Positions 31,431 through 63,687 of a stretch of 64,000 nucleotides of DNA are shown here, in pieces; positions within the stretch are counted from its first letter, which is position 1, and every line of letters begins with the position of its first letter. The notes under the pieces were generated by a model that was not told where the DNA came from, searched no databases, and was given only the letters and a program-made list of their open reading frames with translations. The translations under genes and the position numbers were made by a program. This DNA comes from Centroscyllium fabricii (Eukaryota): contig JBNRSN020000003.1 in the NCBI GenBank assembly GCA_051313645.2, forward strand, positions 484,530,001 to 484,594,000, given 5' to 3'.

Positions 31431-32375
31431 ATGGTAGGACAGCTCAGGCCTGTGTCATGCTCCTCCTGTGCCATGTGGGAAATCAGGGACACTTCCGGTG
31501 TCCCTGACAACTATGTGTGCGGGAAGTGTGTCCAGCTGCAGCTCCTGAGGGACCGCATGGTGGCCCTTGAGCTGCGGATGGACTCACTTTGGAGCATCCA
31601 CGAGTCTGAGAGGGTTGTGGATAGCACATTCAGTGAGTTGGTCACACCGCAGGTAAAGGCCAGCGTAGACAGGGCATGGGTGACCAAAAGGCAGAACAAG
31701 GGCAGGAAGGTAGTGCAGGAATCCCCTGCGGTTATCTCCCTTCGAAACAGGTTCACCGTTTTAGGTACTGTTGGGGGAGATGACTCAGCGGGGGAAGGCA
31801 CCAGCAGCCAGACTCATGGCACCATGACTGGCTCTGCTGCAAAGAAGGGCGGGAAAAGGAGTGGCAGGGCAATAGTGATAGGGGACTCAATCGTAAGGGG
31901 AATAGATAGGAGTTTCTGTGGCCGCAACCGAGACTCCAGGAGGGTATGTTGCCTCCCTGGTGCAAGGGTCAAGGATGTCTCGGAGCGGGTACAGAAAATT
32001 CTGGAGGGGGAGGGGGAACAGCCAGTTGTTGTGGTACACGTTGGTACCAACGATGTAGCCAAAAAAAGGGAGGAGGTCCTACAAGCAGAATTTAGGGAGC
32101 TAGGAGCTAAGTTGAAAAGTAGGACCTCGAAGGTAGTAATCTCTGGATTACTACCAGTGCCACGTGCTAGTCAGAATAGAGAGAGCAGGATAGAGAGGCT
32201 GAATACGTGGCTTGAGCAGTGGTGTAAGAGGGAGGGTTTTAAATTTTTGAGGCATTGGAACCAGTTCTGTGGGAGGTGTGACCTATACAAAAGGGACGGT
32301 CTACACCTATGCAGAGATGGAACTGATGTTCTCGGGGTAATATTTGCTAAAGCAGTTCGGGAGCATTTAAACTAG
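31431..32375 (+). CDS. CR1 ORF1p (Cys-rich zinc finger/leucine zipper plus SGNH esterase)
   Basis: CxxC..CxxC N-terminus; GDSIVRG, HVGTND, DGLHL motifs; 314 aa open. Confidence 0.93.
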   Translation: MVGQLRPVSCSSCAMWEIRDTSGVPDNYVCGKCVQLQLLRDRMVALELRMDSLWSIHESERVVDSTFSELVTPQVKASVDRAWVTKRQNKGRKVVQESPAVISLRNRFTVLGTVGGDDSAGEGTSSQTHGTMTGSAAKKGGKRSGRAIVIGDSIVRGIDRSFCGRNRDSRRVCCLPGARVKDVSERVQKILEGEGEQPVVVVHVGTNDVAKKREEVLQAEFRELGAKLKSRTSKVVISGLLPVPRASQNRESRIERLNTWLEQWCKREGFKFLRHWNQFCGRCDLYKRDGLHLCRDGTDVLGVIFAKAVREHLN

Positions 32376-32422
32376 TATGGCAGGGAGCTAGGAACCTATG
32401 TAGTGAAAAAGAGGAAAGCAAA

Positions 32423-39664: not shown

Positions 39665-39683
39665 TCGTCGCTAAAATCCAAAA

Positions 39684-42600
39684 ATGGACCGAATTCTGGC
39701 TGTCCCGATCTTGGAAATTGATGCGACTGCTCCCGATGCCGAACGCCGGTATAAACACTGGGAACAGCAGCTGAGGAGCTATATCGACGAAGTGAAAGAG
39801 ACTGCTTCAACTGATCAGCAGAAGAGCCGAATTCTACACTGCAGAATCAGTGCTGACCATTACCACCTCATCGAAGGGGAGTCGGATTACGAACAGGCCA
39901 TGAAGAAACTGAAAGAACAATTTGTGCCAGCAGCCAACGCTGTTCACTCAAGGCATGTGTTGACTCAGAGAGCCCAGAGCGCCGAGGAACCGGGCGCCAA
40001 ATTCGTGAAAGAAATTTGTGCGCTGACCCGAGATTGCGCCCCTGGCCCCCTGACGGCGGACGAACACTACAACGAACTGGCACTGGACGCTCTGGTAAGA
40101 GGGGTATACTCCCCATATATCAGGGCCCGACTGCTAGAACGGGATGAGCTAACGTTAAAAGAAGCAGCCTCCCTGATTGTAAATCTGGACAATGCAGATC
40201 GGAGATCCACCACGTATGGCCAACCAAGCGCGCCTACGTGGGCATCCCCAGCCCCAACTCCTACCCCAGCGCTAACGGCAGCGGCAGGAAGAAGCAGGCC
40301 TGAAACCAACCAAAAGTGTTTCTTTTGCGGAAAAGCTAGGCACTCTAGACTGCGCTGCCCAGCCAAAGATGCTACGTGCTCGGGGTGTGGAAAGAAGGGG
40401 CACTATGCCGCGATGTGCCGCGCAACAGGGCAGAAAAAGAAGGCAGCCCCCATCTGCAGCGGAGCGAGAGCGGCACCACGTTCCTACTACACGGAGGTAG
40501 ATGACCGCGAGGGAGCACCACGAGGCGGCGGCCATCTCGAGGCCACAGCTAGGAGGAGCGGCCATCTTAGTTCATCACCACGAGGCAGCGGCCATTTTGA
40601 GAGTCTTCGAATTGACTCCGACCCAGAATATTCGGATGAAAACGACTCATCAACCATGCTGGCGTCCATCACTTTGGACCAATCAAAACCCCATGAACTG
40701 CAGAAATCAATGATGGACGTCCAGGTAAACGGACAAAACTGTAACTGTTTATTTGATACGGGTAGTACTGATAGTTTTATTTCCCCCGAGACTGCTGACC
40801 GTCTTCGCCTGTCGATTCGCCCCTGTTTAAAACGCATCGCCTTGGCGGCGGACTCAGAATCGGCGCAGGCCGTGGGGTGTTGCGAAGTATCACTTGTAGT
40901 TCGCGGGGTAAAATACTGTAATTTTAAACTGTTTGTGTTACCCCACTTGTGCGCCCCAGTGTTATTGGGGCTCGATTTCCAGAGCCACCTGCAGTGTGTC
41001 ACCCTGGTATACGGCGGCCCTCTCCCACCCCTGACGGTCGAGTCGAGTACCCCCCGTGAGCGCCCGCTTTGTGGGCTCACCACTTTACGGATCTCACCCC
41101 CGAAACTGTTCGCGAACCTCACGCCGGACTGCGCACCGATTGCCTCAAAGAGCAGGCGGTATAGTGCTGCAGACAGGGCGTTTATTGGCACCGAGGTGAA
41201 GCGACTGTTGGCAGAGGGGGTGATTGAAGCCAGCCGCAGCCCCTGGAGGGCCCAAGTAGTAGTGGTAAAGACGGGGGAGAAGAACAGGATGGTGGTCGAC
41301 TACAGTCAGACCATAAACAGGTTTACACTCCTCGATGCGTACCCCCTTCCCCGGATCTCGGACATGGTAAATGAAATTGCCCAATACAAAGTCTATTCGA
41401 CTATAGACCTTAAAGCGGCATATCACCAGGTCCCAATCCCCAGAGAGGAGCGCCCCTACACCGCTTTCGAAGCGGATGGTCGCCTCTACCAGTTCCTTCG
41501 GGTTCCCTTCGGAGTAACGAACGGAGTGTCCGTCTTCCAGAGGGAAATGGATAGAATGGTAGACGAACACGGGCTCAGGGCCACCTTTCCCTATCTAGAT
41601 AATGTCACTATCTGCGGCCACTCGGACGAGGACCACGACGAGAACCTCGCTAAATTTTTGAAAACAGCCAAATCCCTGAATTTGACCTACAACAAAGAAA
41701 AATGTGTTTTCCGCACCAGACGCCTAGCTATTTTGGGCTGTGTGGTGGAAAACGGGTTAATCGGCCCGGACCCTGACCGAATGCGCCCGCTGATTGAGTA
41801 TCCCCTTCCCAAGACACCCAAAGCTCTAAAGCGGTGCATGGGGCTGTTCGCGTATTACGCGCAGTGGGTCCCGAAATTTGCGGACAAAGCCCGGCCTCTG
41901 ATGCGGGCCACTGTTTTTCCCCTGTCGGCAGCGGCACTAACGGCTTTTAAGCAACTTAAAGCCGATATAGTAAAAGCGGCAATGTCCGCCATTGATGAGG
42001 ACGTGCCTTTCCAAGTGGAGAGCGACGCGTCCGACTTCGCCCTGGCGGCGACCCTGAACCAAGCAGGCAGACCCGTTGCCTTCTTTTCCCGTACCCTCTC
42101 GGGCTCGGAAGCACGGCATTCCTCCGTGGAAAAAGAGGCCCAAGCCATTATCGAAGCGGTGCGCCACTGGAGACACTACCTGGCCGGTAGAAAATTTACC
42201 CTGCTCACCGATCAGAGGTCGGTAGCATTTATGTTTAGTAACACACAGCGGGGAAAAATTAAGAACGATAAGATCTTGAGGTGGAGGATCGAATTGTCCA
42301 CCTTTAATTATGATATTTTGTACAGGCCAGGTAGACTCAACGAGCCGTCTGATGCACTGTCCCGCGGGACCTGCGCCAGCGTGCAGGCGGGCAGACTGCA
42401 GGCTCTGCACAATAACCTCTGCCACCCGGGGGTCACCCGCTTCTATCATTTTATCAAAGCCCGCAATCTACCGTATAGTATTGCGGAGGTTAGGGAGATA
42501 GTCAGGGATTGTCCGGTCTGTGCGGAATGCAAGCCGCAGTTTTTCCGACCGGACAAGGCACACCTGATTAAGTCCTCTCGGCCCTTCGAACGCCTTAGTA

Positions 42601-43499
42601 TTGATTTTAAGGGCCCACTCCCGTCCACCGACAGGAATGTCTACTTCCTCACAGTCGTGGACGAATACTCCCGTTTCCCATTTGCGATACCCTGCACTGA
42701 TATGACTGCTGCCACAGTCATCAACGCCCTCGCCCCGATATTCGCAATATTCGGCTTCCCCTCATTCATACACTCTGACCGGGGGTCTGCCTTTATGAGC
42801 GACGAACTGCGCCAGTTCCTACTCGCGAGAGGAATCTCGTCAAGCAGGACAACGAGCTACAACCCCCGGGGCAATGGCCAAGTAGAGCGCGAGAATGGCA
42901 CTGTCTGGAAGGCGGTCCGCCTGGCACTCAGGTCCAGGGGCCTTCCAGCCTCACGCTGGCAGGCGGTTCTCTCGGACGCTCTACACGCCGTACGGTCGCT
43001 TCTTTGTACAGCGACCAACGCAACGCCGCACGAACGGATGTTTTCCTTCCCCAGGAAGTCCGTCTCGGGGATGTCGCTGCCGTCGTGGCTAGCCTCCCCG
43101 GGCCCAGTACTGTTGCGGCGCCATGTACGGCACTATAAGACCGACCCACTGGTCGACAGGGTACTCCTCCTCCATGCTAACCCGCAGTACGCCTATGTGG
43201 AGTTCCCTGATGGCAGGAAGGACACAGTCTCTATTAAAGACCTGGCGCCCGCAGGCGCCCCTGCGACCACAACTCCGCCCCCACCCCCCTTCCTCTCGTC
43301 GTGGGCCCAGCCGGCACCTACCACATCGCAGCCCGTGCCCAGCCCCCCACCGACCCATACCGCCGTATTCCCTGGTGACGCACTGCTAACGTATATTCCT
43401 TCGGCTTCCCCAGGTACCGATACCGAACGGCAGGACCAGCAGCTCAGACGGTCGTCGAGGGTGCGACGCCAGCCAGACCGCCTGGTCTGCTCAATGTGA
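39684..43499 (+). CDS. Intact Gypsy Gag-Pol polyprotein (Gag-PR-RT-RH-IN), 1271 aa
   Basis: Two knuckles, LFDTGS, YLDN, ESDASD, H..H..CPVC, DDE integrase; no stops. Confidence 0.95.
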   Translation: MDRILAVPILEIDATAPDAERRYKHWEQQLRSYIDEVKETASTDQQKSRILHCRISADHYHLIEGESDYEQAMKKLKEQFVPAANAVHSRHVLTQRAQSAEEPGAKFVKEICALTRDCAPGPLTADEHYNELALDALVRGVYSPYIRARLLERDELTLKEAASLIVNLDNADRRSTTYGQPSAPTWASPAPTPTPALTAAAGRSRPETNQKCFFCGKARHSRLRCPAKDATCSGCGKKGHYAAMCRATGQKKKAAPICSGARAAPRSYYTEVDDREGAPRGGGHLEATARRSGHLSSSPRGSGHFESLRIDSDPEYSDENDSSTMLASITLDQSKPHELQKSMMDVQVNGQNCNCLFDTGSTDSFISPETADRLRLSIRPCLKRIALAADSESAQAVGCCEVSLVVRGVKYCNFKLFVLPHLCAPVLLGLDFQSHLQCVTLVYGGPLPPLTVESSTPRERPLCGLTTLRISPPKLFANLTPDCAPIASKSRRYSAADRAFIGTEVKRLLAEGVIEASRSPWRAQVVVVKTGEKNRMVVDYSQTINRFTLLDAYPLPRISDMVNEIAQYKVYSTIDLKAAYHQVPIPREERPYTAFEADGRLYQFLRVPFGVTNGVSVFQREMDRMVDEHGLRATFPYLDNVTICGHSDEDHDENLAKFLKTAKSLNLTYNKEKCVFRTRRLAILGCVVENGLIGPDPDRMRPLIEYPLPKTPKALKRCMGLFAYYAQWVPKFADKARPLMRATVFPLSAAALTAFKQLKADIVKAAMSAIDEDVPFQVESDASDFALAATLNQAGRPVAFFSRTLSGSEARHSSVEKEAQAIIEAVRHWRHYLAGRKFTLLTDQRSVAFMFSNTQRGKIKNDKILRWRIELSTFNYDILYRPGRLNEPSDALSRGTCASVQAGRLQALHNNLCHPGVTRFYHFIKARNLPYSIAEVREIVRDCPVCAECKPQFFRPDKAHLIKSSRPFERLSIDFKGPLPSTDRNVYFLTVVDEYSRFPFAIPCTDMTAATVINALAPIFAIFGFPSFIHSDRGSAFMSDELRQFLLARGISSSRTTSYNPRGNGQVERENGTVWKAVRLALRSRGLPASRWQAVLSDALHAVRSLLCTATNATPHERMFSFPRKSVSGMSLPSWLASPGPVLLRRHVRHYKTDPLVDRVLLLHANPQYAYVEFPDGRKDTVSIKDLAPAGAPATTTPPPPPFLSSWAQPAPTTSQPVPSPPPTHTAVFPGDALLTYIPSASPGTDTERQDQQLRRSSRVRRQPDRLVCSM

Positions 43500-47631: not shown

Positions 47632-48799
47632 GTGAGTAGATGCTTGAAATACCTCTACATCCCATCTCAACCTCACTCTGTGCACAGATGGTATAAAGTG
47701 CCAAATCCCCAACACTCACCCAACAACTATGCCCATCTACTAAAAGTCACATCCACATCTCACACCTTGTAGACATTAATGGATATTCAACTATGGTAGG
47801 CAAATCTGCCAAACACATGGCTGCACACTCACTCACACGCTGTCCTTTTTCATGCAGGCCAAGCTTTCACATAACAGGAGGGAGCAACAATGCATGGGAG
47901 GAGGTCAGGCAGAGTTGCAGCCCCTCACACAGCTGGAGGAATGAGTCAAAGATTAATTGCAAGCCATGTCGTGGCGCTGTGGCAGTCAGAGAGGTTGACT
48001 CCCTTGGGGGCAGCAACGGTATGTTCATCATCTCCCTCTCCTCTCTCATACCACTTCCCCCTCACAACACCAGTCTTTCCTACTTTCCATCTGATTATAC
48101 TGTCTTAATTCCTTGCTCCCTTCCTGTGCCCCTGCCCTCACGTTAAAGTCACTCTTGTACCTTCCTGCTTTCAGATAGTGAACCACCATCTGACCAGCCT
48201 GCCCTCAGCCACCCAGTGGCAGTGATGTGGAGTGGAGGGGGAACACCTGAAGGGATAATTACTAACCCTAGCCCTTTTTGGGCTACCCCACATCAGGCGT
48301 ATTCCCCAGACATTCACTTTCAACTAAAGTAAGCAATAGCTGAATTATATAAGACGCTTAATTGGGTCTAAAGGTCCAGGCTATCTCTCTCTAAAGGAAA
48401 GCAATGACAAAAAGATGTTACCATCCTCCAGATAGTACTTTTAATAAGTTTAACTAGTCTGTAACCTTCCGGATATTATGAGGGACCGGAAACGCCCCAG
48501 AATTCTGCAATTCCTTCCAAAAGCATGTACAGAAATGGAGTTTGTGAGTTTAATGCAGAAATACTACTTGAGACAATTCTAATAATATACAGATTTATTT
48601 AAGAGCTGACATACAGTTAACAGCTGATGAGTCAATCACAACTTTAACAGTTCAAAATACAAATAGCTTACATTTCTTATTCTCAGAGATCCTTATTCTC
48701 AAATCATAACTTCATACATTTTTACATTTCTATTATTCTTAATCCAGAATATCCACCAAAATCAAATTAAAAGTACCTTTTTGATCCACGAGACTCAAT

Positions 48800-49701
48800 G
48801 GGGGGGATTTTCACAAAGGTGTGGGAAGCTGGTGGGGATTGGTTAGGGCAGGTTTCTGGCCCGCCCACCCAAGGACCTGGGAGACCCGCATGATTTTGCC
48901 TTAATTGGCCATTTAAATCCCCATCAGTCAGCGCCGTTTTTATTACACACTTCTCAGTCAGGAAGCGTGGGGCATCCTTGCAGATTCTGAATGACCGGGC
49001 AGGCTTTTGATTGACAGGCCTGAAGAGTTGTAGTAGCTCAGAAACCACTAAGCCTGACTGACAGTTCTGAAGTGGTTGCTTTGTTTCAATGTTGACAGAG
49101 GATTGTGATGTCACAATCCAATGCAAACATTGAAACCACAAATCTAACAATTCAAGTGGACTGAATGTTTGTTGGTGGTTTCAGTGGAATGTAAACAGAA
49201 ACTGATCCCCTGGATGATTGACAGCTTGCCTCTCAGGCACAGCTCGCAGTGCGATGTCTGTGAATGGCTGGCATTTAAAGGTAAGTGATTTCTATTTTTG
49301 GGGCTCTGAAGTTGATCACCCTTGGGTGCCAGCTGCACCTCCAGCATGGTGGAGGCTAGCAAGCTACTGTGTGGCTACTGTGCCCATGCATTGAAGGTTG
49401 CAGTCACCCAGCCAATTGGGTGCCCACCAGCTTTCAACGGCGGGGTTCCCACTAGGCGGGTTTTGGTGGGAAGAGGGCGAAAATAGCTGAGGGCCCTTAA
49501 AATAGGATTACCCGGGCAATTTAGGGCCCTCAACAAGCTCATTGAGCATCCCCGCAGGCAGGAAATATTCAGGGCGGGAAAACGCACCCGAGGAAACTGG
49601 CAAATCGGCGGGGATCCGTCGGGTTGGGTTCCCGCCTGCCGAATTTGCGATTTTACCACCCCACCAGAAACCCGCACTCAGGGACCCTGGAAAATCGCCC
49701 C
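48800..49701. mobile_element. Harbinger-like MITE in the ERV 3' LTR
   Basis: TIRs GGGGGGATTTTC / GAAAATCGCCCC; absent from the other LTR. Confidence 0.82.
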
Positions 49702-49895
49702 AAAGAGTTAAAAATGCACAGAGCATACCTCTGAAGTTAAGAATCACCTTCCCTTTCCAGCAACTTCTGACTTTCCATCTGAAAAGATCTACTATTATAC
49801 CTTTTTTAGTGGTTTATTCTTTGACGTTTTCTGCTGATGTAAGTTATCTTTGTTGAATTATTTTCTATACTTACTGCCAATTCAACTGTTGCAAG

Positions 49896-52800
49896 TGTGG
49901 CGGCACACTAAGACTGACGAATCCGTCTCGAGAGCTGCGGGGCATAGCCCCGCCCATCGGGTGAGGTGATGACGTCACCACCATCCCTCGGCGTGATGAG
50001 GTCACTAAAGCGGGCCTTTTAAATAAGCTCGCTCCTCGTGTTTCACTCTCTTCCTTCCTTACTGTAATGTATTAAACAGTGTTTTTCTGTCTCTCTGGCT
50101 CCCGCGTGGTTCTTGGGTCCTGCAAGCGCTACACTGGTGACACCGACTTGGAACGACTTCCAAGGAGAAAAAGCAGCTACAGGACCAATGACCAAGCAGC
50201 CTCAGGCCACTTTAAAAGTTAAACATGACTACAAGGAACCAGGCTTCTCGAACCCAAGGACTTGGCCAGAACTTCGGACACAGACTTACACTACCGGAGT
50301 TCTGGGAGCAGCGCCCAGCGGCCTGGTTTATGTGCATCGAAACCAGCTGCCGCACACACGGCGTCCAGGGGGATGACCGCTATGACTTGGTCTTTTCGGC
50401 CCTACCGCAATCGACGATTGATCGGATGTGGTCGAAGCTACAGCGTGTGCCCACAGCAGGCAGGTATGAGTTCCTTAACGCCGCGCTGCTAAAAAAATGT
50501 ACCCCCTCCCAATTTGAGCGCGACTGCCAGCTCCTTAACCTCCCCGAACTCGGGGACGCAGACCCATCGGACCTTTGGTGTCAGATGCAAGCGCTCACCG
50601 CAGATCCCGCCTCCCTGTTCCGCACCGTTTTCCTCCTCAAACTACCCCGCTCCATCAGACCGGCCCTGGCGGCCCTCTGCCACCGGAACGGGGACGAGCT
50701 AGCCGAGGAAGCCGACAGGCTCATGGTGGCCGAGCGCACCCGCTCCACCATGTGCGACCCTAATGCCGCATCCATTGAGCGCAACCACTCACCCCCCAGG
50801 TCCAACCCAACGCCTGAACCCAGGCCCCCGTGCCCACCCAGACAACCGCGTCCATCAAGCACCGGCTGGTGCTACTACCACACGCGGTTCGATAATAAAG
50901 CGCACCGCTGCGTACAGCCCTGCGCATTTAAGCCACGGCCCACACCAGCCCCCACTATGTCTGTAGGACACACAGGAGCACTGCTCTTTGTCACAGACAG
51001 CGGCACAGGCCTCCGGTTCCTCTGCGACACAGGCGCACAGCACAGCATCGTGCCAGCCTCCACAGCAGAAGCCAAACAAGGCACCCGGGGCCCGCCACTC
51101 GCAGCGGCCAACGGCTCCAATATAAAAATGTACGGCACCCGCAAGCTCACTATTAAGCTCGCTGGCCACACGTATCACTGGGACTTTGTCACAGCCCAGG
51201 TCACTTCTCCCCTCCTCGGGGCAGATTTCCTCTGCACCCACGGCCTGCTGGTCGACATGACCCGGCACCGCCTGGTCGACATCAATAACATGTCGACCAT
51301 CCCATGCTCCACAGGGCCCGCACTCCTGGCCCACGCGGCGGCACAATGCCGCTCCTGGAACTCTGACGCATACGGCACGCTCCTCGCAGAGTTCCCCACC
51401 CTTACCAACCCCACGTTCACCGCCCGCCGGGCCAAACACGGGGTAGAACATTTTATTACCACCACTGGCCCTCCCGTGCATGCCCACGCCCGCAGGCTGG
51501 ACCCGGCCAAACTGGAGATCGCGCGCACCGAGTTCCGCACCATGGAACAACTCGGCATAATCCGCCGCTCCAACAGCCCCTGGGCCTCTCCCCTCCACAT
51601 CGCCCCCAAGCCGGGCGGGGGTTGGCGCCCCTGCGGCGACTACCGCCGCCTAAACAACGCCACTACCCCGGATAGGTACCCCGTACCCCACATCCAGGAT
51701 TTCTCCGCCAGACTAGCAGGCTGCACGATCTTCTCTAAGATCGACCTGGTGCGTGGCTACCACCAGGTTTCGGTGCACCCGGCGGACATCGCCAAAACTG
51801 CCGTCATCACCCCCTTCGGACTCTTCGTGTTCCTTAGGATGCCCTTCGGCCTTAAAAATGCGGCCCAAGCCTTCCAGCGCCTCCTGGACTCAGTCATACG
51901 GGACTTGAAGTTCATTTTCGTCTACTTGGACGACATCCTCGTGGCCAGCACCTCCCCCCAGGAACACCTCCTGCACCTCAGGACCCTGTTCCAGCGCCTG
52001 GTGGAACACGGCCTTATATTAAGCCCCTCAAAATGCAAATTCGGCCTCGAGACCATAGACTTCCTCGGCCACCGCATTTCCCAAACCGGGGCCATACCCC
52101 TGCCCACCAAGGTGCAGGCACTTCAGGAATTCCCCCGCCCGCACTCCATTAAGGGGCTGCAGGAATTCCTGGGGATGGTTAATTTTTATAACCGCTTTAT
52201 CCCAGGAGCAGCCGCTCTCATGGCCCCCCTATACCAGGCCACACGCGGGCAGTCTGGCAAAACTGCGGTTGAGTGGACGGCCGATGCCGCCACCGCCTTC
52301 ACCGCAACCAAAACCGCCCTGGCCAACGCCACCCTCCTAGCCCACCCCAGGCCCAACGCCAGAGTGGCCCTCACCACTGACGCCTCCGACCACGCTGTCG
52401 GGGCCGTCTTTGAACAGTGGACCGGCAACTCTTGGCAGCCCCTGGCCTTTTTCAGCCGGCAACTTCGGCCCCCAGAGGTCAAGTACAGCGCCTTCGACAG
52501 GGAGCTCCTCGCTCTCTACCTCGCAGTGCGCCATTTTCGCTTGCTCTTGGAGGGCCGTCCCTTCACAGCCTTCGTCGACCACAAACCACTCACCTTCGCT
52601 ATGGCTAAGGTCGCCGAACCCTGGTCGGCCAGGCAGCAGCGCCAGCTTGCAGCTGTGTCGGAGTTCACTACCGACATTCAGCACATCTCCGGCCGCGACA
52701 ACGTGGTTGCTGACTGCCTCTCACGCTCCGCAATTAACGCCGCCCAAATGGCGGTCGATTACGCCAAGCTGGCAGCAGACCAGCTGGCTGACCCAGACCT

Positions 52801-54319
52801 GCTCGACCCAGCAGCAAACCTCCCTGGCCTACACCTGGCCAAAATCGCACATAGCCCCGCTGCCACAGTCGTCTGCTGCAACGTTTTCCTACCGCAGCCC
52901 AGACCCGTCGTCCCCCACGCATGGAGGCGACACATCTTCGAGACCCACTATGGCCTGTCCCACCCCGGCACCCGCGCATCCATTAAGCTAATTTTGGCCC
53001 GTATCGTGTGGCGCGGCCTGCGCAAAGACATCCGCGCCTGGACCAACTCCTGCATTGCCTGCCAGCACTCTAAAGTGCACAAGCACATCAGGGCACCGCT
53101 GGAAACCTTCACAGTGCCGGCCAGACGCTTCGACCACGTCCACATCGACCTCGTCGGGCCACTACCGCCATCCCGGGGCCACACACACGTCATGACCATG
53201 GTCGACCGCAACACTCGCTGGCCAGAAGCAGTCCCCCTCGCTGCCACCGGCACCACGGACTTGGCCAGGGCGTTCATCGCCACTTGGGTCGCCCGTTTCG
53301 GCGTGCCCACCGACATCACGTCAGACAGAGGACCCCAGTTTACGTCAGCACTATGGGCGGCCATCGCCCGCGACCTCGGGGTAACCTTACATCGAACCAC
53401 CGCATACCACCCACAATCTAACGGGCTCTGCGAACGGTTCCACCACTCTATGAAAGCATCCCTGCGGGCCAGCCTCAAAGACGCGTCATGGATCGACCGT
53501 CTCCCGTGGGTACTCCTCGGGCTGCGCTCGGCAGTCAAAGAGGACCTAAACGCCTCGGCAGCAGAACTCGTCTACGGCCAAACTTTAACAGTGCCGGGCG
53601 AATTCCTCGCCGAGCCAAACGCTCCCTGGTCGGCCGACCAGTTCTTAAAAGACTTTGCCAACCCGGCACGAGCGTTCAAACCCGTACCAGTGGCCCGGCA
53701 TGGAGAGCCGGCGGCACGTGTACCGGACGGCATTAAAAACGCCAAGTACGTGTTCGTCCGGCACGACGCCCATCGCTCGCCACTGCAACCAACCTACGAC
53801 GGTCCCTACAGAGTGCTTCGGGCGGGAACTAAAGCTTTCCAATTGCAGCTGGGCAACAGAACAGAAACTGTCTCTATAGACCGGCTAAAACCGGCACACG
53901 TGATAGCGGGCGACGCAACAGTCCCCGCCCAACCACCTCAACGCAGACGCCCTCCCTCACCAACACCCGCCCACACTCCACCGCAGAACAAGGAGCAACG
54001 CACGACACGTGCCGGCCGTGCCTTACGGCCACCACAACACTACACATAGACTCTTTTATCCTCTCAGACGGATTCTGGGGGGGAGCTGTGTGGCGGCACA
54101 CTAAGACTGACGAATCCGCCTCGAGAGCTGCGGGGCATAGCCCCGCCCATCGGATGACGTGATGACGTCACCACCATCCCTTGGCGTGATGAGGTCACTA
54201 AAGCGGGCCTTTTAAATAAGCTCGCTCCTTGTGTTTCACTCTCTTCCTTCCTTACTGTAATGTATTAAACAAGTGTTTTTCTGTCTCCCGCGTGGTTCTT
54301 GGGTCCTGCAAGCGCTACA
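49896..54319 (+). mobile_element. Gypsy element G (CsRn1/Kabuki-like), full length
   Basis: LTRs 49896-50133 and 54089-54319, 4-bp TSD CAAG, PBS TGGTGACACCGAC (tRNA-Trp-like), G-rich PPT. Confidence 0.96.
50225..54049 (+). CDS. Intact Gag-Pol polyprotein, 1274 aa
   Basis: CHCC Gag motif [40 protein letters not shown] integrase and GPY module. Confidence 0.95.
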
Positions 54320-55304
54320 CAAGCATAATTATGTCTCTACTTTTAGGTGTTCCAAAAACCTACCATAAAAGACAATATAACAGTCGTATTTATTTGATTC
54401 CATTCTTATCGAAGGACTTCCATTCAATTCTAAAATCACTTAGCTATTTGGAAGCAGATGTTGTGACTCCTATGTGTTCCATTTTCAATACAAAAGCCAT
54501 GTAATTGCTTGGTGCCATCTATTGAAGTTATATTTTCAAAGTGTTCTGTTTGTACCTTTTACAACATGTAAATCAAAAACACTTCAACTAGCATGTTTTG
54601 TTTTCCCAGCCATCTTAGTTGGTTATATTACTGAATTATGTTTCCATTCTTTCATTTGCCATTACTTTCATCAAAGGCACATGGTTTTTTAATAATCTGT
54701 GTTTCTGTTCGAAGTGTCAGTTTTTAACACTTTACTTGGGCATTACTTTTGTGTTGATTCCAAACTGCAGACATTCTGGAAGCTGCAACTTGCTGTTTCA
54801 ATAGGACCATTGTCTCAGTATTAACTATCAATTCCTATTTCAAAAGCTTGTGTGGTGTTTACAGCTTGTGTTAACAACTGATCTTATCTCAAATGCATGT
54901 ATTCTGTTTGCAGCCTGTGTCACCGAGGCTTTCCAGACTTTTAAACCCAGTATGTCATGTATTAATAATATCAGAAATCTGTTCATAGGATGGTGTATTT
55001 CTTGGAATATGGCCTTTTCCTTTAGACCCCTTTCTTGACCAAAAGATGAGCTCATAACATCAGGGCAGAGTTTGGTTAATGATACTAATAAGGTTACAAT
55101 AGCATATGAAGTTCACGAGATCCACAATCATGTGCGACATGAAAATTCCTTTGGAGTCATCCTAGGCAATGTTTTGTCTTATTTTAAATTGAACACAATT
55201 TAAAAGGATGATAAGTACATAGTCATGCAATTAGCGAAACAACATGTACTTAGAATGTCCAATCGGCAAATGTACATACCATAGAGGTGAGTTATTCATA
55301 CGAG

Positions 55305-55583
55305 TCAAGGAGATGTCAGTTGAAACTTGTTGAAACTTGACACACTGTTCCTTCGATCCACCATGAGTACTGATGCATGTTGTCCTAAAGGCCTTGCCAG
55401 GCACTCAGTTGATTCCTTCTTTATCCGTGGTGTCTTCCTCCTTCGCTGAAGTAACTCATTGATCTTTCCTTGTTTCGGTTGTTGCTTTTTGCAAATCCAA
55501 TTCCTGATGCATTGCCAAGCAATGTGTGGAAGAGTCGGTGACAACGTCTGACTGACCATCATCAGTAATTCGATTGCATCCAT
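55305..55583 (-). pseudogene. Possible env leader or accessory-gene remnant
   Basis: 92-aa ORF directly after the integrase end; only about 550 bp remain before the PPT; homology not recognisable. Confidence 0.35.
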
Positions 55584-55659
55584 TTCCTATGTCATGCTCC
55601 ATGCTAGGTCTTGAAAGACAGTGTATGACTGTACCTTGTATTGTTCCTCCTTTTTGGTA

Positions 55660-58140
55660 TCCTGCAGGGCATCTTTTGATATTGTCTATGGAAACAGTTT
55701 AAAGAACATGTTTGCCATTCGACTGGTTAATATGTATTTGAACCATTCTTTCGTTAATAACAGAATATATTTGAACAGGTTTTTTCCAGTTCGGTCTAAA
55801 ACCAGGTCTCTGCTCGAACTTCATTTCCTGTACCCATTCTCCTGCTATGGGTTGCCATGCTTTATTTGTCCATTTTTTCTGCCTATTTGCTTCCCTTATC
55901 CTTTGATCAATTGGATGAATCTCCTCATGTGATAGCAAAATACTGTGGATGCTGGAAATCTGAAACAACAACAGAAAATGCTGGAGAAACTCAGCAGGCC
56001 AGGCAGCATCGGTGGAGAGAGAAACAGAGTTAACGTTTCAGGTCGATGACCTTTCTTCAGAACTGGAGAGGGGAATAGATTTGAAAGCTGGTGGGGACTG
56101 GGGAAAGGGGGAAGGGCTGAAAGAACAAAGAGGATTTCAGCCACAGGCTAGAAGGTAGGGGAGATAAGAGACATAGTGAGGAATTCAAGGAACACAGGAT
56201 GGCTCTGGATCGGTGTGAATGACTCTGGCAGAGTGAAGAAAAAAGAGAAAAAATAAAAATGCCATGAATCTCCTCTGTTACTTCTCTTTTGTTTCTAACT
56301 GTCGCTGTCAGGTCAAAGACTCAGAGTGTGTAGAGGCAATAAAAGAACCATGGGTAAGCGGTGTATGCATCTCAACCCCATGCATCAGATAATATGGAGT
56401 TTTAGGGGACACTGACCCTGATGCAGATGTGAACACATTATTGAGTGATAGCTGCACCTCCGGAATGATGGTGGTCCACTTATTCCCCCTGATTCTCAAC
56501 AGTTTGACCAATAGCTTTTTTACTTCCTGGTTTTTACATTCCACCAGCCCCGCGGATGACATGGCGTGCTGTGCTCTAACCCAATCCCCCTTTGTTCACA
56601 GTCATCTTTGAAGAACTTAGATATAAAGGCTCTGCCTTAAACGGAGTTTAAGATTTTGGGTTCACCAGCTACAGTAATTATATCTGAAATAACCCTGGCA
56701 AGTGCGTTTTCTGAAACAGTTTTTGTGGGGACCAGCCAACAGAATGAAGTGCATCCATCCACACAAACGAGAACAAATGTCTGTATCCCAAAGATGGGGT
56801 AAGTGGTCCAATAAAGTTAATAAAGAATTTTCCCATTGGCTCATCAGTTTTCACAGGAGCCAATGGTGGTGGCTTAATTAGTGGTGACTTATTGGTCAAA
56901 TAGCATGGCTCACAATTTGCCACATATGTTTTACAGGCTTTAAGCATGCCTGGCCACCAACATAAGGGGGTCAATTTGCAGAATATTGTTCTGGCACCAC
57001 AATGTGCTTGACTTATGCCCGCATGAGCTTCTTTTACAAGCTGTTCTCATTTGTGCCTTGGGGGTACCTCTCGGTTTCCCTTGGGCAACTTAACTAGTAC
57101 AATACCCCTAGGGGTTTCCGAGTAAAAATACTTTGGTGGATATCCTGGTGGATTGTCTTTTGTTGAGTCTAATAGCTGAATCAGTTGCTCATCCTGATTA
57201 GCTGCCCACTCTGCCCTAGTGATTACACTAACATTGGCAGGCTCCTCTCGAGGGGGTGTCATGCAGACCGAATGTTTTGCTTATTCATCTGCAAGGCTGT
57301 TTCAATTTGAGTGTACTGTCCCAGTGGTATGCCCGTTTACATGAATCACCTGACAATTCTTTTTCCCCCATTCTCGAATGGTGAATATCTTCCCACAGTG
57401 TGGGTTTAATAAGGTCTGCTTTCTCTAAAGCATACCGTAATGCTGCGGCTTCAGCATGCTGCGCTGTCTTATGGCCAAGAGGTATAAACAGTAATTCTTC
57501 TGGATAAAATGAATAGGAATCTGAAAAAGTCCCTACTACTATCCCCATCCCAGCTGAGGATTGCTGGGATGTCTTTTTTAATCATCACTGACAACTCATC
57601 AAAGTAAATAACCTGATGATATTCTGTAAGCGGTCTCATCGTTATTTGTCTGATTCCCTCCTCCGTATCATCATCCTCCATGATGGGGAGATGCTCTATC
57701 TTTTCACATTGATTTGGATGGCGTTGTAGATAAGAGTAGTATCTATTAATGAGTTTCTTGAGGAGGCCTTAACTCCCCCCTCTAGACAAGTTTGATCAAG
57801 CTGTGTTCAAGCATGTTTTTCCCAGTCATCCTGGTCTGTGGAAGCTTCTACAGGTCCAGTAGATATTTTAAGGTAATGTTTTATGTGTGGTTGTCCTATA
57901 TTGAGGAAACAGGCCAATTCTGGTATCAGTCCTACATCTAGGGTCACCGTGATTCCATATATAATAATAGGTATCTTGTAAAAATTAATTATTTTGGTTT
58001 TGTCTTGTGTGAATCCCCCTAATGATTTTTTTTACAAATTGGGCTTCCCAAACCTGTCCACTTAGTTTTTATAATTGCAGAATCTATTACATTGTAATCA
58101 GGTCCCATATCAAACAGGGCTTTCACTTGTGCATTTGTGG
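55660..58140 (-). pseudogene. pol: Foamy-like pol remnant: protease, RNase H, integrase; RT largely deleted
   Basis: KALFDMG; IPLGHKTAQHAEAAA; GYPPKY; WWPGM..C..C; KFFINFIGPLTPSLGY; VECKNQEVKKLLVKLL..VQLSLNN; WQPIAGEWVQE..RPNWKKP..TVSIDNIK, all resembling foamy Pol. Confidence 0.88.
55927..56263. mobile_element. Penelope-like terminal-repeat fragment
   Basis: GATGCTGGAAATCTG...CAGCAGGCCAGGCAGCATC...CGTTTCAGGTCGATGACC; 12-bp TSD ATGAATCTCCTC; splits the ERV integrase. Confidence 0.7.
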
Positions 58141-59327
58141 GCAAGGTTGCCAAGGCATAGGGAAATTCAAGAGGCCCTGGCTGGGTGCCAGGCCTTCAAT
58201 CCTGGGATTGTTCATCCTCAGAATCCTGAGCTTCATTTTCTGCTTTATCTTTAATTATTTTAACTGATGTTTGTTCCTCCCTCTTGGGGGTTTCATGTTT
58301 TCCAGATCCCTGAGGGGGTTTGTTGGACTGTTTACTTTCTTGATGATCCTCCTGTTGAGGTGGACATTGGTTCTGCCGGGAACCTTTTTGATCCAAATTT
58401 CGGTTTTCTCGGTACCCTTCCATGGCTCTTTGATAGTTTTGGCCTGTGCAAAAGTTGTCCTCACAGGGAGTCCACTGCCCTTTGCTTTCCTTTTGTGGTC
58501 TAGCCCCTCATTTACCCCATCATTTTGGGGAGAAATCTGTCTCATATTGTAGGTGAGTTGGGAATGTAAACCTTCTGGAATACCCTCTTGAGGGTCCTGA
58601 GTCATGAGTTTGTGTCTGGGTGGGGTGGACTTGAGACTTGGGTCTATACAGTCCTTCTTTCTGAGTACCAAAGGTACCTGCTCCAATTTTTCATCCCCAG
58701 TTTCTGACCTCATTATAGGTTTAGTTTGGGGTTGACCTAAGAGGTCATGATTTAATTGGATAATGTGATTGACATTATCTTATATTTGTTGGTGATCTCG
58801 ATAATCATTTAGAACACCCTCACAGGCAATTTTGAGGGTTTTATTTTGATATTGATTGGCCACGCAACCATGGACAATTTCCCAATTATCCTGTGTAAGT
58901 ACTTTGCCTAATCTGTATACAGCTACCAGCCCTTCATTTGTGGCTGTATTAGTGAGCATTTCCTGATGGAACCCATTACATGCCTTCCCTGAGTGGCCGT
59001 GAGAACATAAGTGTATATTTGAACAGTTGTTGCACTGGTTTAATGGGGGTATTAAGTCTGAACTTAGTATAATTTGCAGTAGTTGCCTCAGGTGTTGAGC
59101 ATTCCAATCTTTGCAACAGGTTTCCAATTTATCAAGGTTAGTTAGAATCCAATAGTTTTTTCCTGGCTGGTGTTTCGTGGTCTACCACATTGTGTAGATA
59201 GAGTTCAGATTTACTTGACCTAGGGGCGCAATTTGTGGTTTCTGAGGTTGGTTTACTGGATCATTAATCATTGCGCCTCCAGCATTTAGATAAGAGTGAG
59301 CTAGTGCCTGCTGGCATTGATTATAAT

Positions 59328-60485
59328 GGGCCATGTTTTCCTGTGGCCCATTTGCCGCTGGTGCGCGCTCCCGAGCACCCGCGGCGCACGCGCACGTTTT
59401 TTGGGGGGGTTTTCAGACGCCGATTTCCTGCCGATGTTGCCGGGTTTTTTTGCTGCGTGGGTGTGTTGTTTTTGTTGCTGCGAGGTGCTTTGTGCGTGGG
59501 TTCTGAGCAGGCCACACCCACTGAGGTCGGCTTTTTCGCCCGCAAAAAGCCTCAGTGCTCAGACTGGCTAAGAGTCTAGGGATATGTTTTTCTCGGTCAT
59601 TTTAGTGAAGAAGTAGAGGTGAATGTAAAGCACTCATCTGCACTTTATTCACATCTATATTTTTGCTAAGAAGCAAACATTAGTCCACAAAGATCAGCAC
59701 GAGCAAGAGCACGTAGAATGAGCAAAGCTGATTGGCTTTCCAGAACATTGCATCGGCAGGTCTTCGATCATCAGAACAATTTCTTGCTGACAATTAAGAC
59801 TTAATTTTGCAAGGCGAGTCAAGGCTGCCTGTATAGATGCTCACTAGGCAGGACTGTGAGTCAGCAAAAGGACTCTAAAACGATAGGTTTCGATTCTGAG
59901 ATCCACACCCAATCTAGAAAGGCTCCGTGCTAGGGGTGAAGTCTTGCAAAACTTGCCCACCCAGGTTTAGCCTTTTCAAAACAAGTTCTATGTGTAATTA
60001 AACACAGTGCTTAAATCTCTTTGCCAAATAATAATAAACTAGTGAGAATCAGTACTTTATCACCAGAACTGCTGAAAAGCCGTTTAAAAACCCGTTAAAA
60101 AAAAATATTAAAGTAAACAAAAAGAAAAAAAGACACTTCAATTTAAAAGCTTAAAGACCACACACACACATCAGCAAAGGAATAAAAATAAAACTTACCT
60201 TTCAAAGCTTTTCAACCTGTTTCTCCACTTCTCAGCCCCATTAACGACTGATTTGTAAATGTGCAGATCAGCACAGAAATGTCCACGTGATAACACATGC
60301 ATTTTGAGCAGCTGCTACAGGAAATCGGCAGTTCAAAGTCTTCCTGCATTGGAAGCTGAAGCTCCTTCCCCATCAGCACAGGAAATTGACGTTTCTGGGA
60401 ATCACCCGTGCTTCACACCCACAAAGCATTTCTGAACCCCCTTCGTGGGTGTGAAGCTCCTCTGGAGCACAGGAAAACATGGCCC
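59328..60485. mobile_element. Non-autonomous TIR element (Harbinger-like) in the ERV gag
   Basis: Perfect 18-bp TIRs GGGCCATGTTTTCCTGTG / CACAGGAAAACATGGCCC. Confidence 0.85.
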
Positions 60486-60782
60486 ATTGGATTCTAAACT
60501 GTCTATAGTTTTCTCAAAGATTGTTGTAATTTATTTCATCATGCGTTTGCCACCTTAACTGGAATCCATGGCTTCCAGGAGCATAGGCTGCTTTGGGTCC
60601 TGCTATTCGGCCATGGTTGCCACCATCTTGTTGGACACTGTTCATTAGGCCTACCAATGGTGCTGGTGTGCACCTTATCATTAAGGAATTTAGTGGATTT
60701 GGAGTATTTGTTTGATTATCCCACTGGATATTCTGTATCCCCTGGTTCTGGTGATCAATATCAATCATGCCATGAGTGTAAG

Positions 60783-61178
60783 TACGGTGGCATAGTGGTT
60801 AGCACTGTTGCCTCACAGCTCTGGAGACCCGGGTTCAAATCCAGCCTTGGGTACTATCTGTGTGGAGTTTGCACATTCTCCCCGTGTCTACGTGGGTTTC
60901 CTCCGGGTGCTCCGGTTTCCTCCCACAGTCCAAAGATGTGCAAGTTAGGTTGATTGGCCATGATAAATTGACCCTTAGTGTTAGGGGGATTGAATATGTG
61001 GGGTTACGGGGATAGGGTGGGATATGTGTCGGTATAGACTCGATAGGGATATGGGGAGAGGGCAGGGGCGGGGTTTGGATGATCAGCCATGATCTCATTG
61101 AATGGCGGAGCAGGCTCGAAGGGCCGAATGGCCTACTCCTGCTCCTATCTTCTATGTTTCTATGTTTCTATGTTTCTA
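60783..61178 (+). mobile_element. V-SINE (HE1-like)
   Basis: A/B boxes, V-core, CR1 tail with (TTCTATGT)n. Confidence 0.92.
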
Positions 61179-61605
61179 ACGGCTCCTTCGGCATCAAAGC
61201 CTTCTATTTCAAAAATTATCACTTGGTTTTGTGGAAGTACAGGGATAGGATTATTTCCCTAATAAAGCAATTTTTTGAATTTTCTAATAAAAAGACTTGG
61301 CCAATTCCGACAGGGTTTGCCATTTCTTCAGGAACTAACCTCTGTTAGGGTTTAATATTTTGTCAGGACCTAACCTCGGTTAGGGTTTAATATGAGCTTA
61401 GTAGGACATTTCTAGACGTCAATGGTATATTGAGGGAGTTCTGATTTAAGTGCTACAAGGCCTGATCAGGGTCTGGTCATCTCTAGAGACTTAAATCTGG
61501 GTCTTAGTACTACTGTCAGTAAAATACTCCTTCTATGCATAACAATCTACAAGATGGATATGATATAAATATAAGTACAGTATAGGTTCTGTATCAACTT
61601 ATTAA

Positions 61606-61623
61606 CACACATGTTGGGTGCCA
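61606..61623 (-). promoter_or_regulatory. ERV primer-binding site, tRNA-Lys1,2 type
   Basis: Minus strand TGGCACCCAACATGTGTG versus canonical TGGCGCCCAACGTGGGGC; the first two differences are CpG decay; lies 2 nt from the LTR. Confidence 0.85.
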
Positions 61624-61625
61624 AC

Positions 61626-63070
61626 TGAAGCAATAATTACTAGTCCTAGACCTTTTTGGGCTTCCCCAGATCAGGCATATTCCCCAGGTGTTCACCTTCA
61701 ACTAAAGTTAGAGATAGCTGAATTCTATAAGATGCTTAATTGGGTCTAAAGGTCCAGGCTATCTCTCTCCAAAGGAAAGGAATGACATAATGATGTTACT
61801 GTCCTCCAGATAGCACTTTTAATAAGTTTATCTAGACTGTAATCTTCCGGATATTATGAGGGTCTGGAACCCCCCCCCCAGAATTCTGCAACTCCTTACA
61901 AAAGAGTGTACAGAAATTGTGTTTGCGCGTTTAATACAGAAATACTACTTGAGACAATTCTAAAAATATATAGATTTTTAAGAGCTGATATATAGTTAAC
62001 AGCTGATGAGTCAATTGCAACTTTAACAGTTCAAAATACAAATCGTTTACATTTCTTATTTTCAGCGATCCTTTTTCTCAAATCTTAACTTTGTATATTT
62101 TTACATTTCAATTATTCTAAATCCAGAATATCCACAAAAATCAAATTAAACGTACATTTTTGATCCCCAAAACAGAAAGAGTGAAACACTTAGAGCATGC
62201 CTCTGAAGTTGAGAAGCACTTGCCCTTTCCAGTGACTTCTGACTTTCCATCTGAAAAGCACTATTTTAATACTTTTTTAGTGGTTTATTCTTTGAAGTTT
62301 TCTGCTGATGTAAGCTAATTATCTTTCGTCATCTTTGTTGAATTATTTTCGATACTTACTGCCAATTCAACTGTTGCATGCATAATTATGTCTCTACCTT
62401 TAGGTGTTCCAAAAACGAATCATAAAAACAATATGACAGTGGTATTTATTTGATGCCATTCTTATGAAAGGACTTCCATTAAATTATAAAATCAATTAGC
62501 TGTTTGGAAGCAGATGTTGTGACTCCTGTGTGTTCCATTTTCAATACAAAAGCCATGTGATTGCTTGGTGCCATCTATTGAAGTCATATATTCAAAGTGT
62601 TCTCTTTGCACCTTTTACAACATGTAAATCAAAAACACTTCAAAAGGATCTTTGTTTTCCTAGCCATCTTAGTTGGTTATATTACTGACTTAAGTTTCCT
62701 GTCTTTCATTTGATGTTACTTTTATCAAAGGCACATGGTTTTTTAATATTCTGTGTTTCTATTTGAAGTGTCAGTTTTTAATATTTTACTTGGCATTGCT
62801 ATTTTGTTGGTTCCAAACTGCAGACATTCTAGAAGCTGCAACTTGCTGTTTCAATAGGACAATTGTCCCAGTGTTAACAATCAATTCCTATTTCAAAAGC
62901 TTGTGTGGTGTTTATAGCTTAACAACTGATCTTATCTTAAAAGGTGTGTTCTGATTGCAGCCTGTGTCGCCGAGGCTTTCCAGAGTTTTAAACCCAGTAT
63001 GTTATGTATTAATATCAGAAATCTGTTCATAGGATGATATATTTCTTGTAATATGGCTTTTTCCTTTACA
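61626..63070 (-). repeat. ERV 5' LTR (about 1445 bp)
   Basis: TG..CA termini; direct repeat of 48248-55026 once that copy's insertions are removed. Confidence 0.92.
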
Positions 63071-63687
63071 CACCAAGCCGTAGCCTCAGTGCCTGTGTCT
63101 CCAAAGGGTGAGACATCCGATACTGGGGCCACGCAGCAACTGGAGGAGAGCAGAGGAAATGGCTCTGATGTGGGTGAAGCTCTGGGACCCAGCGGGCTGC
63201 AGCAACACCATGGGGGAAGGACAGCTCGAGGGCCATCTCCCCAGAGGGTGAGTGCACACATGGGTTCTGCTGCACAGGACTTGGATGAGGACCTCGATGC
63301 CGAAGCGATGAAAACACAGGTGGTGAGCATGGACACTGAGCTCATGGGTGCAATGGCAAGGGTGCCCGAGAGCATGGATGCACTGGCTCAGAGCATGGAG
63401 GGGTCTGCCGCCAGCACAGCTGTCATCTGTGTGCAACCACTCGAGCCCATCCTTGCCTCATTGCAGAGGACAGTTGACTTGCAGAGAAACCGTGGGGTCC
63501 AGACTCCATGCTGTGTGGAATGGGTGAGGTGGCAGCATCTATTGCAACACAGGCCGAGATAACACAACAGCTTAGTTTTGTAATAGAGTCATTGGTTAAT
63601 GCCATCCAATCTCATTCTGCTCTCATGCAGTCTCAGATTGATGCCACGCAAGTGTTGGCTGCTGCCATGATTGCTGGGTTGACCACT

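Follow-up and report, generated by a model that had tools for sequence, protein, structure and literature searches.

In the window analyzed here, a stretch of 64,000 nucleotides of the Centroscyllium fabricii genome (contig JBNRSN020000003.1), a minus-strand provirus at positions 48,248-63,070 carries foamy-virus-like remnants but no reverse transcriptase (RT). This locus raises a key question: were the missing parts lost during the decay of this single insertion, or were they already absent from the genome from which it was copied? The provirus is bounded by a 5' LTR of 1,445 bp (61,626-63,070, minus strand), which is uninterrupted and reads TG...CA on the minus strand, and by a 3' LTR (48,248-55,026, minus strand) split into three pieces (~54,320-55,026, 49,702-49,895 and 48,248-48,796). 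The target-site duplication CACC adjoins both provirus ends (48,244-48,247 and 63,071-63,074), in agreement with the first-pass annotation, which had described an LTR pair of ~1.45 kb between CACC repeats. We refer to the old foamy-like endogenous retrovirus (ERV) family to which the window copy belongs as family A. An exact 4-bp duplication was found at 9 of 17 full-length solo LTRs of this family, with one mismatch at 5 more.

The primer-binding site (61,606-61,623, minus strand) lies 2 nt after the LTR and is decayed, and it matches the complement of the tRNA-Lys(CTT) 3' end at 13 of 18 positions. The tRNA-Lys(CTT) gene used for this comparison was found in the same genome; the terminal CCA is absent from the gene and was presumed. 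Sister copies show up to 14 contiguous matches, so that the Lys-type site proposed earlier is borne out. The 5' leader (61,174-61,605, minus strand) is non-coding, with stops in all three frames across copies, and the polypurine tract (55,027-55,036, minus strand) stands directly before the 3' LTR. The GGGTG border between the polypurine tract and the 3' LTR, decayed in the window copy, is matched exactly in 9 of 20 sister rows. According to the accessible text of PMC5210030, this border has been reported for foamy-like ERVs, and a Lys primer site, a 4-bp duplication and long LTRs are typical of these elements, but not diagnostic. Rfam and ARAGORN searches of the window returned no matches. 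Among the 20 public runs listed, the best share was 0.40, so none came to half, and no RNA run was among them.

The two LTRs differ at p = 9.9% of 1,430 aligned sites (K2P 0.107; piecewise alignment), with values of 11.7%, 10.1% and 8.5% for the individual 3' LTR pieces. Two short stretches compared by hand had suggested ~9% and 16%: the former agrees with the overall figure, while the latter is a local value that is not reproduced over any whole piece and was rejected as an overall estimate.

Five nested insertions account for 7,222 of the 14,823 bp of the provirus span, and all of them were confirmed by comparison with sister copies and from their termini. Two interrupt the 3' LTR: a ~0.9-kb non-coding, probably MITE-like sequence with short inverted ends (48,797-49,701), and a 4.4-kb Gypsy-type LTR retrotransposon on the plus strand (49,896-54,319) with LTRs 94% identical, a 4-bp target duplication and one frame of 1,277 codons. 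A short retroposon with a target duplication of at least 12 bp lies in the integrase (55,926-56,258), and a non-autonomous, MITE-like DNA transposon of 1.16 kb with 26-nt terminal inverted repeats lies in gag (59,328-60,487). The fifth insertion (60,778-61,173), in the leader, ends in an 8-nt repeat tail and is probably a SINE-like retroposon, further copies of which occur at other places in the window.

The gag remnant (58,255-60,777, minus strand) is disrupted by the fourth insertion, stops and frameshifts. Near 58,780-59,330 on the minus strand, the Pfam foamy Gag central domain (Gag_FV_central) was matched at E 3e-4, which is below the cut-off, and the best solved-structure match was PFV Gag, also weak (E 0.66); in the family as a whole, all 14 natural Gag stretches match Gag_FV_central, with a best E of 5e-14. 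A Cys-His box (CX2CX4HX4C) was sought in the gag region of the window and was not found, which is in keeping with the knuckle-less Gag that the first-pass annotation named as characteristic of spumaretroviruses. A protein atlas query with one Gag stretch gave nothing usable. Gag ends at a stop common to the copies, and the pol frame, which differs from that of gag, has an upstream ATG that is likewise shared; expression of Pol from a spliced mRNA of its own, the mammalian spumavirus mode, would be compatible with this arrangement, and so would frameshifting or readthrough.

At the start of pol, the protease remnant (57,800-58,195, minus strand) is broken, and its pieces gave no Pfam match; a weak match to the FFV protease (E 5e-4) was obtained for one sister copy, L025. 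RT is absent from the window copy, and feline foamy Pol maps there to RNase H and integrase only. At 57,690-57,698 (minus strand) lies an in-frame junction at which ~1.27 kb of RT is lacking, with a 4-nt repeat (microhomology) on either side of the missing part. The RNase H remnant (57,270-57,620, minus strand), whose sole solved-structure matches are foamy chains (E 4e-5), shows a second loss, of 111 nt near 57,400, which is again in frame and shared with other copies. The integrase remnant (55,640-57,260, minus strand) comprises the N-terminal extension, zinc domain, core and C-terminal SH3 and is broken by the third insertion and by frameshifts; its best PDB match is PFV integrase (E 8e-16), and its C-terminus matches Pfam SH3_11 (E 1e-5). 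Thus, foamy viruses are the best matches of the capsid, RNase H and integrase remnants, as had been noticed from the sequence, with the Gag match weak in the window copy.

Another important question is whether these remnants place the element among foamy-like retroviruses. The RT of family A, taken from sister copies, shows 45-48% identity with six RTs of mammalian foamy viruses, and against the PDB it matched foamy RT at E 1e-64 or better, versus 1e-24 for Ty3 and 1e-14 for MLV-type chains. In a careful RT tree of 21 rows, drawn from a quick RT tree of 63 rows, family A, family B (described below), P0011, a catshark protein and five mammalian foamy viruses form one group (99/99), and the teleost-type relatives, which are foamy-like by inference, and the Gypsy rows fall outside the foamy group in the RT trees. 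In a quick integrase tree, read with rows L097 and L099 left aside as Gypsy integrases, the window piece groups with foamy and amphibian rows (SH-aLRT 91). In a protein search that covered 1.8 billion representatives, a nematode Gypsy-type protein with multiple integrases ranked first, and among the first named matches are proteins of amphibians, the Pol of feline foamy virus and a bat foamy virus. Comparison of the window integrase piece with longer proteins gave 21 candidates, none of them significant, and an RT search in viral contigs gave two weak 20-residue matches only. A Gypsy identity was rejected on the basis of the PDB scores and both trees.

Taken together, the RT and integrase trees, the foamy-type Gag domain present in 14 of 14 stretches, and the anatomy of the LTRs, primer site and target duplication support, at the level of sequence comparison, the membership of the window copy in the foamy-like ERV clade, as the first-pass annotation had proposed. 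That annotation had suggested asking whether integrase and RNase H cluster with Gypsy, lokiretroviruses or other class III elements; family A clusters neither with Gypsy nor with the teleost relatives, in a panel from which the other groups are absent (named lokiretrovirus, ERV-L and snakehead-virus references). That family A is instead a lokiretrovirus, a relative of ERV-L or the snakehead virus, or a Gypsy element is highly improbable, for although the composition of this panel, the undetected spumavirus protease family and foamy env in the window copy, and the occurrence of Lys primer sites and 4-bp duplications also outside foamy viruses would accommodate it, the RT identities, the PDB scores, the Gag domain and the nesting of family A with foamy viruses inside the teleost relatives all count against it. 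Lokiretroviruses are defined in the accessible text of PMC8922424 by an RT sister to all other retroviruses and an env like the paramyxovirus/pneumovirus fusion protein, and the nesting of family A inside foamy-like rows argues indirectly against its membership in that group. The organization of mammalian-type Spumaretrovirinae is not present in this element, which has no env and no accessory genes.

Is the absence of RT, then, a property of the window copy or of the family? In a first search of the 7.2-Gb genome with the window interior, copies were collinear across the protease-RNase H junction, and the exact window spacing was found in 20 of 30 loci, a set of loci biased toward the query. 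When a foamy RT was used for searching, degraded RT-bearing copies of family A emerged in which RT sits exactly at the position of window 57,690-57,698. Unbiased counts of 25-mers (up to 2 mismatches; 0 and 0 in reversed-pattern controls) located the RT-less junction at 89 genomic sites and the RT start at 84, the latter including partly deleted copies: among 20 sampled RT-start copies, 8 have nearly all of RT, 6 show internal losses and 6 are cut short. The counted sites include segmental duplicates, four of them on C667. The LTR/primer-site junctions of family A number at least 190. Private decay of the window copy as the cause of its RT loss was rejected, since the same junction recurs at 89 sites, and the view of the RT and env losses as decay of this insertion gives way to one of inherited family traits.

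The RT-less copies have further features of their own. Of 32 RT-less loci scored, 27 have the 111-nt in-frame loss in RNase H, whereas no such loss was seen in any of the 27 rows (23 distinct loci) in which RT survives wholly or partly or which the script left without a class. Early in the pol frame, a stop occurs in 33 of 36 RT-less rows versus 11 of 24 RT-bearing rows (62 rows tallied, 2 of them unclassified). In a tree built from the DNA of 44 copies, the RT-less ones group separately from the RT-bearing ones, with 6 label changes versus 12.7 after shuffling, and a permutation of distances between the classes in the same 44 copies reached the observed value in 0 of 2,000 trials. The mean distance is 12.1% within the RT-less and 12.8% within the RT-bearing class, no pair is closer than 4%, and the end branches are star-like; on these distances, the two classes are of like age and consist mostly of independent insertions. 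The classes are not clean clades, at least three of the six changes being forced by starred branches, so that recombination or noise is needed to account for them; mixed copies would fit co-packaging followed by template switching. The RT-less copies thus form a non-autonomous ERV subfamily, with one inactivating deletion, many independent insertions and autonomous-type relatives of like age.

Could RT have been lost after integration, either once, with later spread of the loss through gene conversion or segmental duplication, or repeatedly at the short repeat? We regard this as very unlikely: a few duplicates do exist (L028-L031, and L113 and L120, which have a common flank), and L039 and L137 share a second, different RT loss, so losses do recur, but the 89 sites lie on many contigs with copies 12% apart, only one pair among 27 compared LTR-end flanks has common host DNA (the other matches being internal element sequence), and both the RNase H loss and the stop early in pol go with the RT-less class. 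Segmental duplication as the chief origin of the copies was rejected on the same comparison of flanks.

The second missing region is env. In the window copy, the pol frame extends to ~55,400, and the stretch that follows it (55,037-55,700 with the pol frame end, minus strand) contains a short second frame that overlaps pol at the position of an env start. The distance between the pol end and the polypurine tract is ~370 nt, and the post-pol stretch is equally short in all sister copies that extend that far; among 14 RT-bearing stretches fetched, all 9 that reach the post-pol region are collinear with the short stretch of the window. Eleven natural stretches from the post-pol frame were compared with env families, including foamy env PF03408, and none matched, and comparison of this frame with the env-position frame of family B gave no significant match. 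Neither the window copy nor its sister copies have room for accessory genes (tas/bet) or an internal promoter. The earlier statement that RT and most of env are deleted therefore stands for RT, while for the latter "no recognizable env" is the better description, and this applies to every family A copy examined.

The same genome also harbors a separate, young, env-bearing foamy-like family, which we refer to as family B, with 544 primer-site junctions and LTRs ~1% apart. The DNA common to families A and B is limited to a short RT patch (69%). As a helper of family A, family B was rejected, because it is far younger and shares only this patch.

These data raise the question of how copies without RT could multiply. 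The same junction at 89 versus 84 sites, the RNase H loss confined to RT-less copies and the absence of env point to an env-less family that amplified together with a non-autonomous offshoot copied in trans. We consider it probable that the RT-less offshoot of this env-less family was copied by proteins of its RT-bearing sisters, in the following steps. A foamy-like virus would have colonized the germline, its env being gone by the time the present copies arose, and RT-bearing, env-less copies would then have multiplied inside cells using their own Gag and Pol; foamy viruses are able to retrotranspose inside cells. One template switch between the two 4-nt repeats during reverse transcription may have removed the ~1.27 kb of RT, and a descendant of this RT-less genome would later have lost 111 nt of RNase H. 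The RT-less genome, which amplified, would have been packaged, reverse-transcribed and integrated by the proteins of RT-bearing sisters. The window copy itself then decayed and took five younger insertions.

What the offshoot has kept is consistent with this route. The RT-less genome retains the LTRs, primer site, leader, polypurine tract and the 3' portion of pol. According to the accessible text of PMC3705302, mammalian foamy viruses have their signals for packaging and for Pol capture in the 5' UTR and in 3' pol, and their Pol is captured via the genomic RNA; by analogy with these signals, which were mapped in mammalian foamy viruses rather than in family A, the retained regions could have allowed copying by sister proteins. 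Complementation in trans is a recognized route for ERVs, as stated in the part of PMC8922424 available to us. Neither of the two shared deletions shifts the frame, so the RT-less form may in addition have provided a protease or integrase of its own, or it may have competed for Gag, ending the burst.

The trans-complementation could also have proceeded by reinfection, with an env-bearing helper, either an undetected provirus of family A or the exogenous parental virus, packaging both env-less forms into infectious particles. We think this unlikely, though it has points in its favor: in the accessible part of PMC10924933, non-autonomous copies dominate the new insertions of an active cattle ERV and one section title names reinfection, and in family A the post-pol frame occupies the env-start position. 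Among the examined stretches, no env-bearing copy of family A was seen, a result drawn from the sample and from one env search in which 47 of 724 candidates were scored, so that this search gives a lower bound only. The scored matches, at least 47, have long open frames resembling those of young family B, a likeness judged at the level of the frames, and the age and scant common DNA of that family count against it as the helper. Because no env-bearing family A copy was seen, intracellular copying by RT-bearing sisters is favored over an env-bearing helper. A more far-reaching version, in which family A is a foamy lineage turned purely intracellular retrotransposon of the shark germline, with parasites arising stepwise through the loss of env, the pol-start stop, the loss of RT and the loss of part of RNase H, is put forward only tentatively, and we hold it to be somewhat doubtful.

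The host and the age of the insertion were also considered. The first reading had proposed a probable cartilaginous fish, and an LDH-A exon supports this at the class level: 56 of 58 residues match PDB 1LDM/6LDH, presumably the dogfish entries, ~10 bits above the next chain. An LDH-B exon did not discriminate the host class. With half of the LTR divergence (0.107/2), the insertion would be ~240 My old at 2.2e-10 per year, the rate assumed for the elephant shark in the accessible text of PMC4422223, and ~53 My old at 1e-9; at the rate measured in the epaulette shark, given in the available part of PMC10587355 as 7e-10 per generation, it would date back 76 million generations. The insertion is thus old, as had been claimed, but datable only loosely, since the rates of sharks are known only to within an order of magnitude. 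The few LTR pairs available by class gave divergences of 0.078 (RT-less) and of 0.114 and 0.068 (RT-start class); a further value of 0.259 is distrusted. If sharks mutate slowly, the insertion could be older than the divergence of the living shark groups, and it would then provide a calibration point for the age of foamy viruses.

How does family A compare with known elements? Foamy-like ERVs are already known from the elephant shark and the small-spotted catshark, so the kind is not new. For CmiFLERV of the elephant shark, the accessible text of PMC5512871 reports pol only; for ERV-Spuma.0-Sca of the catshark, that of PMC10699275 reports 293 elements with no Gag or Env domain. Like them, family A is a multi-copy element of a cartilaginous fish with a foamy-like pol; compared by description only, it differs in its foamy Gag domain and its RT-less subfamily. 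ERV-Spuma.0-Sca has, moreover, been placed with ray-finned fish elements (accessible part of PMC10699275), whereas family A is nearer to mammalian foamy viruses in the trees built here.

With the mammalian foamy viruses (PFV, SFV, FFV, EFV), family A shares an RT 45-50% identical, an integrase with N-terminal extension and SH3 tail, a Gag domain without a Cys-His box, a Lys primer site, a 4-bp duplication, long LTRs, and gag and pol in different frames. Unlike them, it is endogenous and dead, it has no env or accessory genes, and half of it is without RT; an A9 protease was not recognized in its broken pieces, with a weak FFV protease match in one sister. The foamy-like ERVs of teleosts, amphibians and the coelacanth have, as family A does, a Lys primer site, a 4-nt duplication and no Cys-His box, and they have the GGGTG border that is exact in part of the family A rows (accessible parts of PMC5210030, PMC5512871 and bioRxiv 2020.12.18.423569). 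Their described full-length examples carry env and accessory genes, as stated for the amphibian endogenous foamy viruses in the available text of bioRxiv 2020.12.18.423569, and neither was found in any copy of family A examined.

Mouse ETn/MusD and MaLR are non-autonomous ERV subfamilies copied in trans. Another parallel to the process proposed here for family A is the D-type of cattle ERVK[2-1-LTR], in which a deleted genome with cis-signals multiplies through the proteins of autonomous relatives (accessible part of PMC10924933). The cattle and mouse elements are beta-like or ERV-L-related, whereas family A belongs to the foamy lineage and its RT-less form, unlike them, keeps gag, protease and integrase sequence. 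Complementation in trans of non-autonomous ERVs is established in the accessible texts of PMC8922424 and PMC10924933, the former of which describes endogenous foamy viruses as rare. In the literature searched, mostly without subscription papers, we found no report of an amplified RT-less foamy subfamily, and the available parts of PMC8227577 and bioRxiv 2021.11.23.469661 contain nothing on shark foamy ERVs. What is new here is the amplified RT-less foamy subfamily; shark foamy-like ERVs and trans complementation were already known.

Family A thus represents a shark foamy-like element with LTRs, a primer site and a detectable foamy Gag at no fewer than 190 proviral sites, while such examples were previously known mainly from pol. 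It indicates that a foamy lineage is able to lose env, to amplify and to give rise to an RT-less offshoot that comes to occupy about as many sites as its helpers, and ERV screens based on RT would overlook half of this family. If the proposed origin of the parasites is true, the parts they have retained would constitute a natural map of foamy cis-signals conserved from sharks to mammals. Together, families A and B turn the place of sharks in foamy-virus history and the early expression of foamy Pol into testable questions.

A second foamy-like family, family B, is present on many contigs of the host genome assembly and is much younger than family A, the old env-less family to which the provirus of the window (minus strand, 48,248-63,070) belongs. 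A count of LTR/primer-site junctions in the assembly gave 544 for family B, and the RT DNA identity among 24 sampled copies ranged from 95 to 99%. The LTRs of this family are 1.2 kb in length with a divergence of approximately 1% within a pair (two pairs), the Lys primer site is perfect, a foamy env is present (PF03408, E 6e-20), and extra frames of unknown kind are located between env and the 3' LTR. Three copies, chosen arbitrarily, are contained in the stretches L142-L147. Family B represents a foamy-like genome of complex organisation carried by a shark-type host, and it is probably of greater interest than the window provirus itself.

For the LTR of the window provirus, all 19 best matches outside the window (L002-L020) resembled solo or truncated LTRs. 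The LTR search returned 8,410 first-look candidates, a figure that is not a copy number but suggests that solo LTRs are far more numerous than proviruses. Within family A, two copies on different contigs (L039 and L137) share an internal loss of RT that is distinct from the main RT-less junction, and they perhaps represent another small non-autonomous subfamily.

A related element is also carried by the catshark Scyliorhinus torazame, as shown by a predicted protein (P0174) in which a foamy-like RT is fused to a PR/SET domain; the fusion is likely an artefact of the gene model. Approximately 31 matches to the 3' end of tRNA-Lys(CTT) were found at ~ 2.4-2.9 Mb of one host contig (C3), and since the one match that was checked is a tRNA gene, this region is probably a tRNA gene array.

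The Gypsy-type element nested in the 3' LTR of the provirus (49,896-54,319) retains one open frame of 1,277 codons despite an LTR identity of only 94%, and a relative with an integrase ~ 90% identical is found in L097. Positions 1-47,000 of the window are densely piled with frames classed by eye as LTR-retrotransposon-like and LINE-like (for example, 32,351-35,323 and 39,675-43,496), and no host gene was recognised there.

Near the beginning of pol, each of the two families has one position at which the majority of copies carry a stop, with a sense codon in the remaining copies. The stop occurs in 46 of 62 family A rows (window ~ 58,200) and, at the gag/pol border, in 17 of 20 family B rows. 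A single frame is common to gag and pol in family B; in family A, the gag frame differs from that of pol. This pattern of stops and frames is relevant to the mode in which early foamy viruses made Pol.
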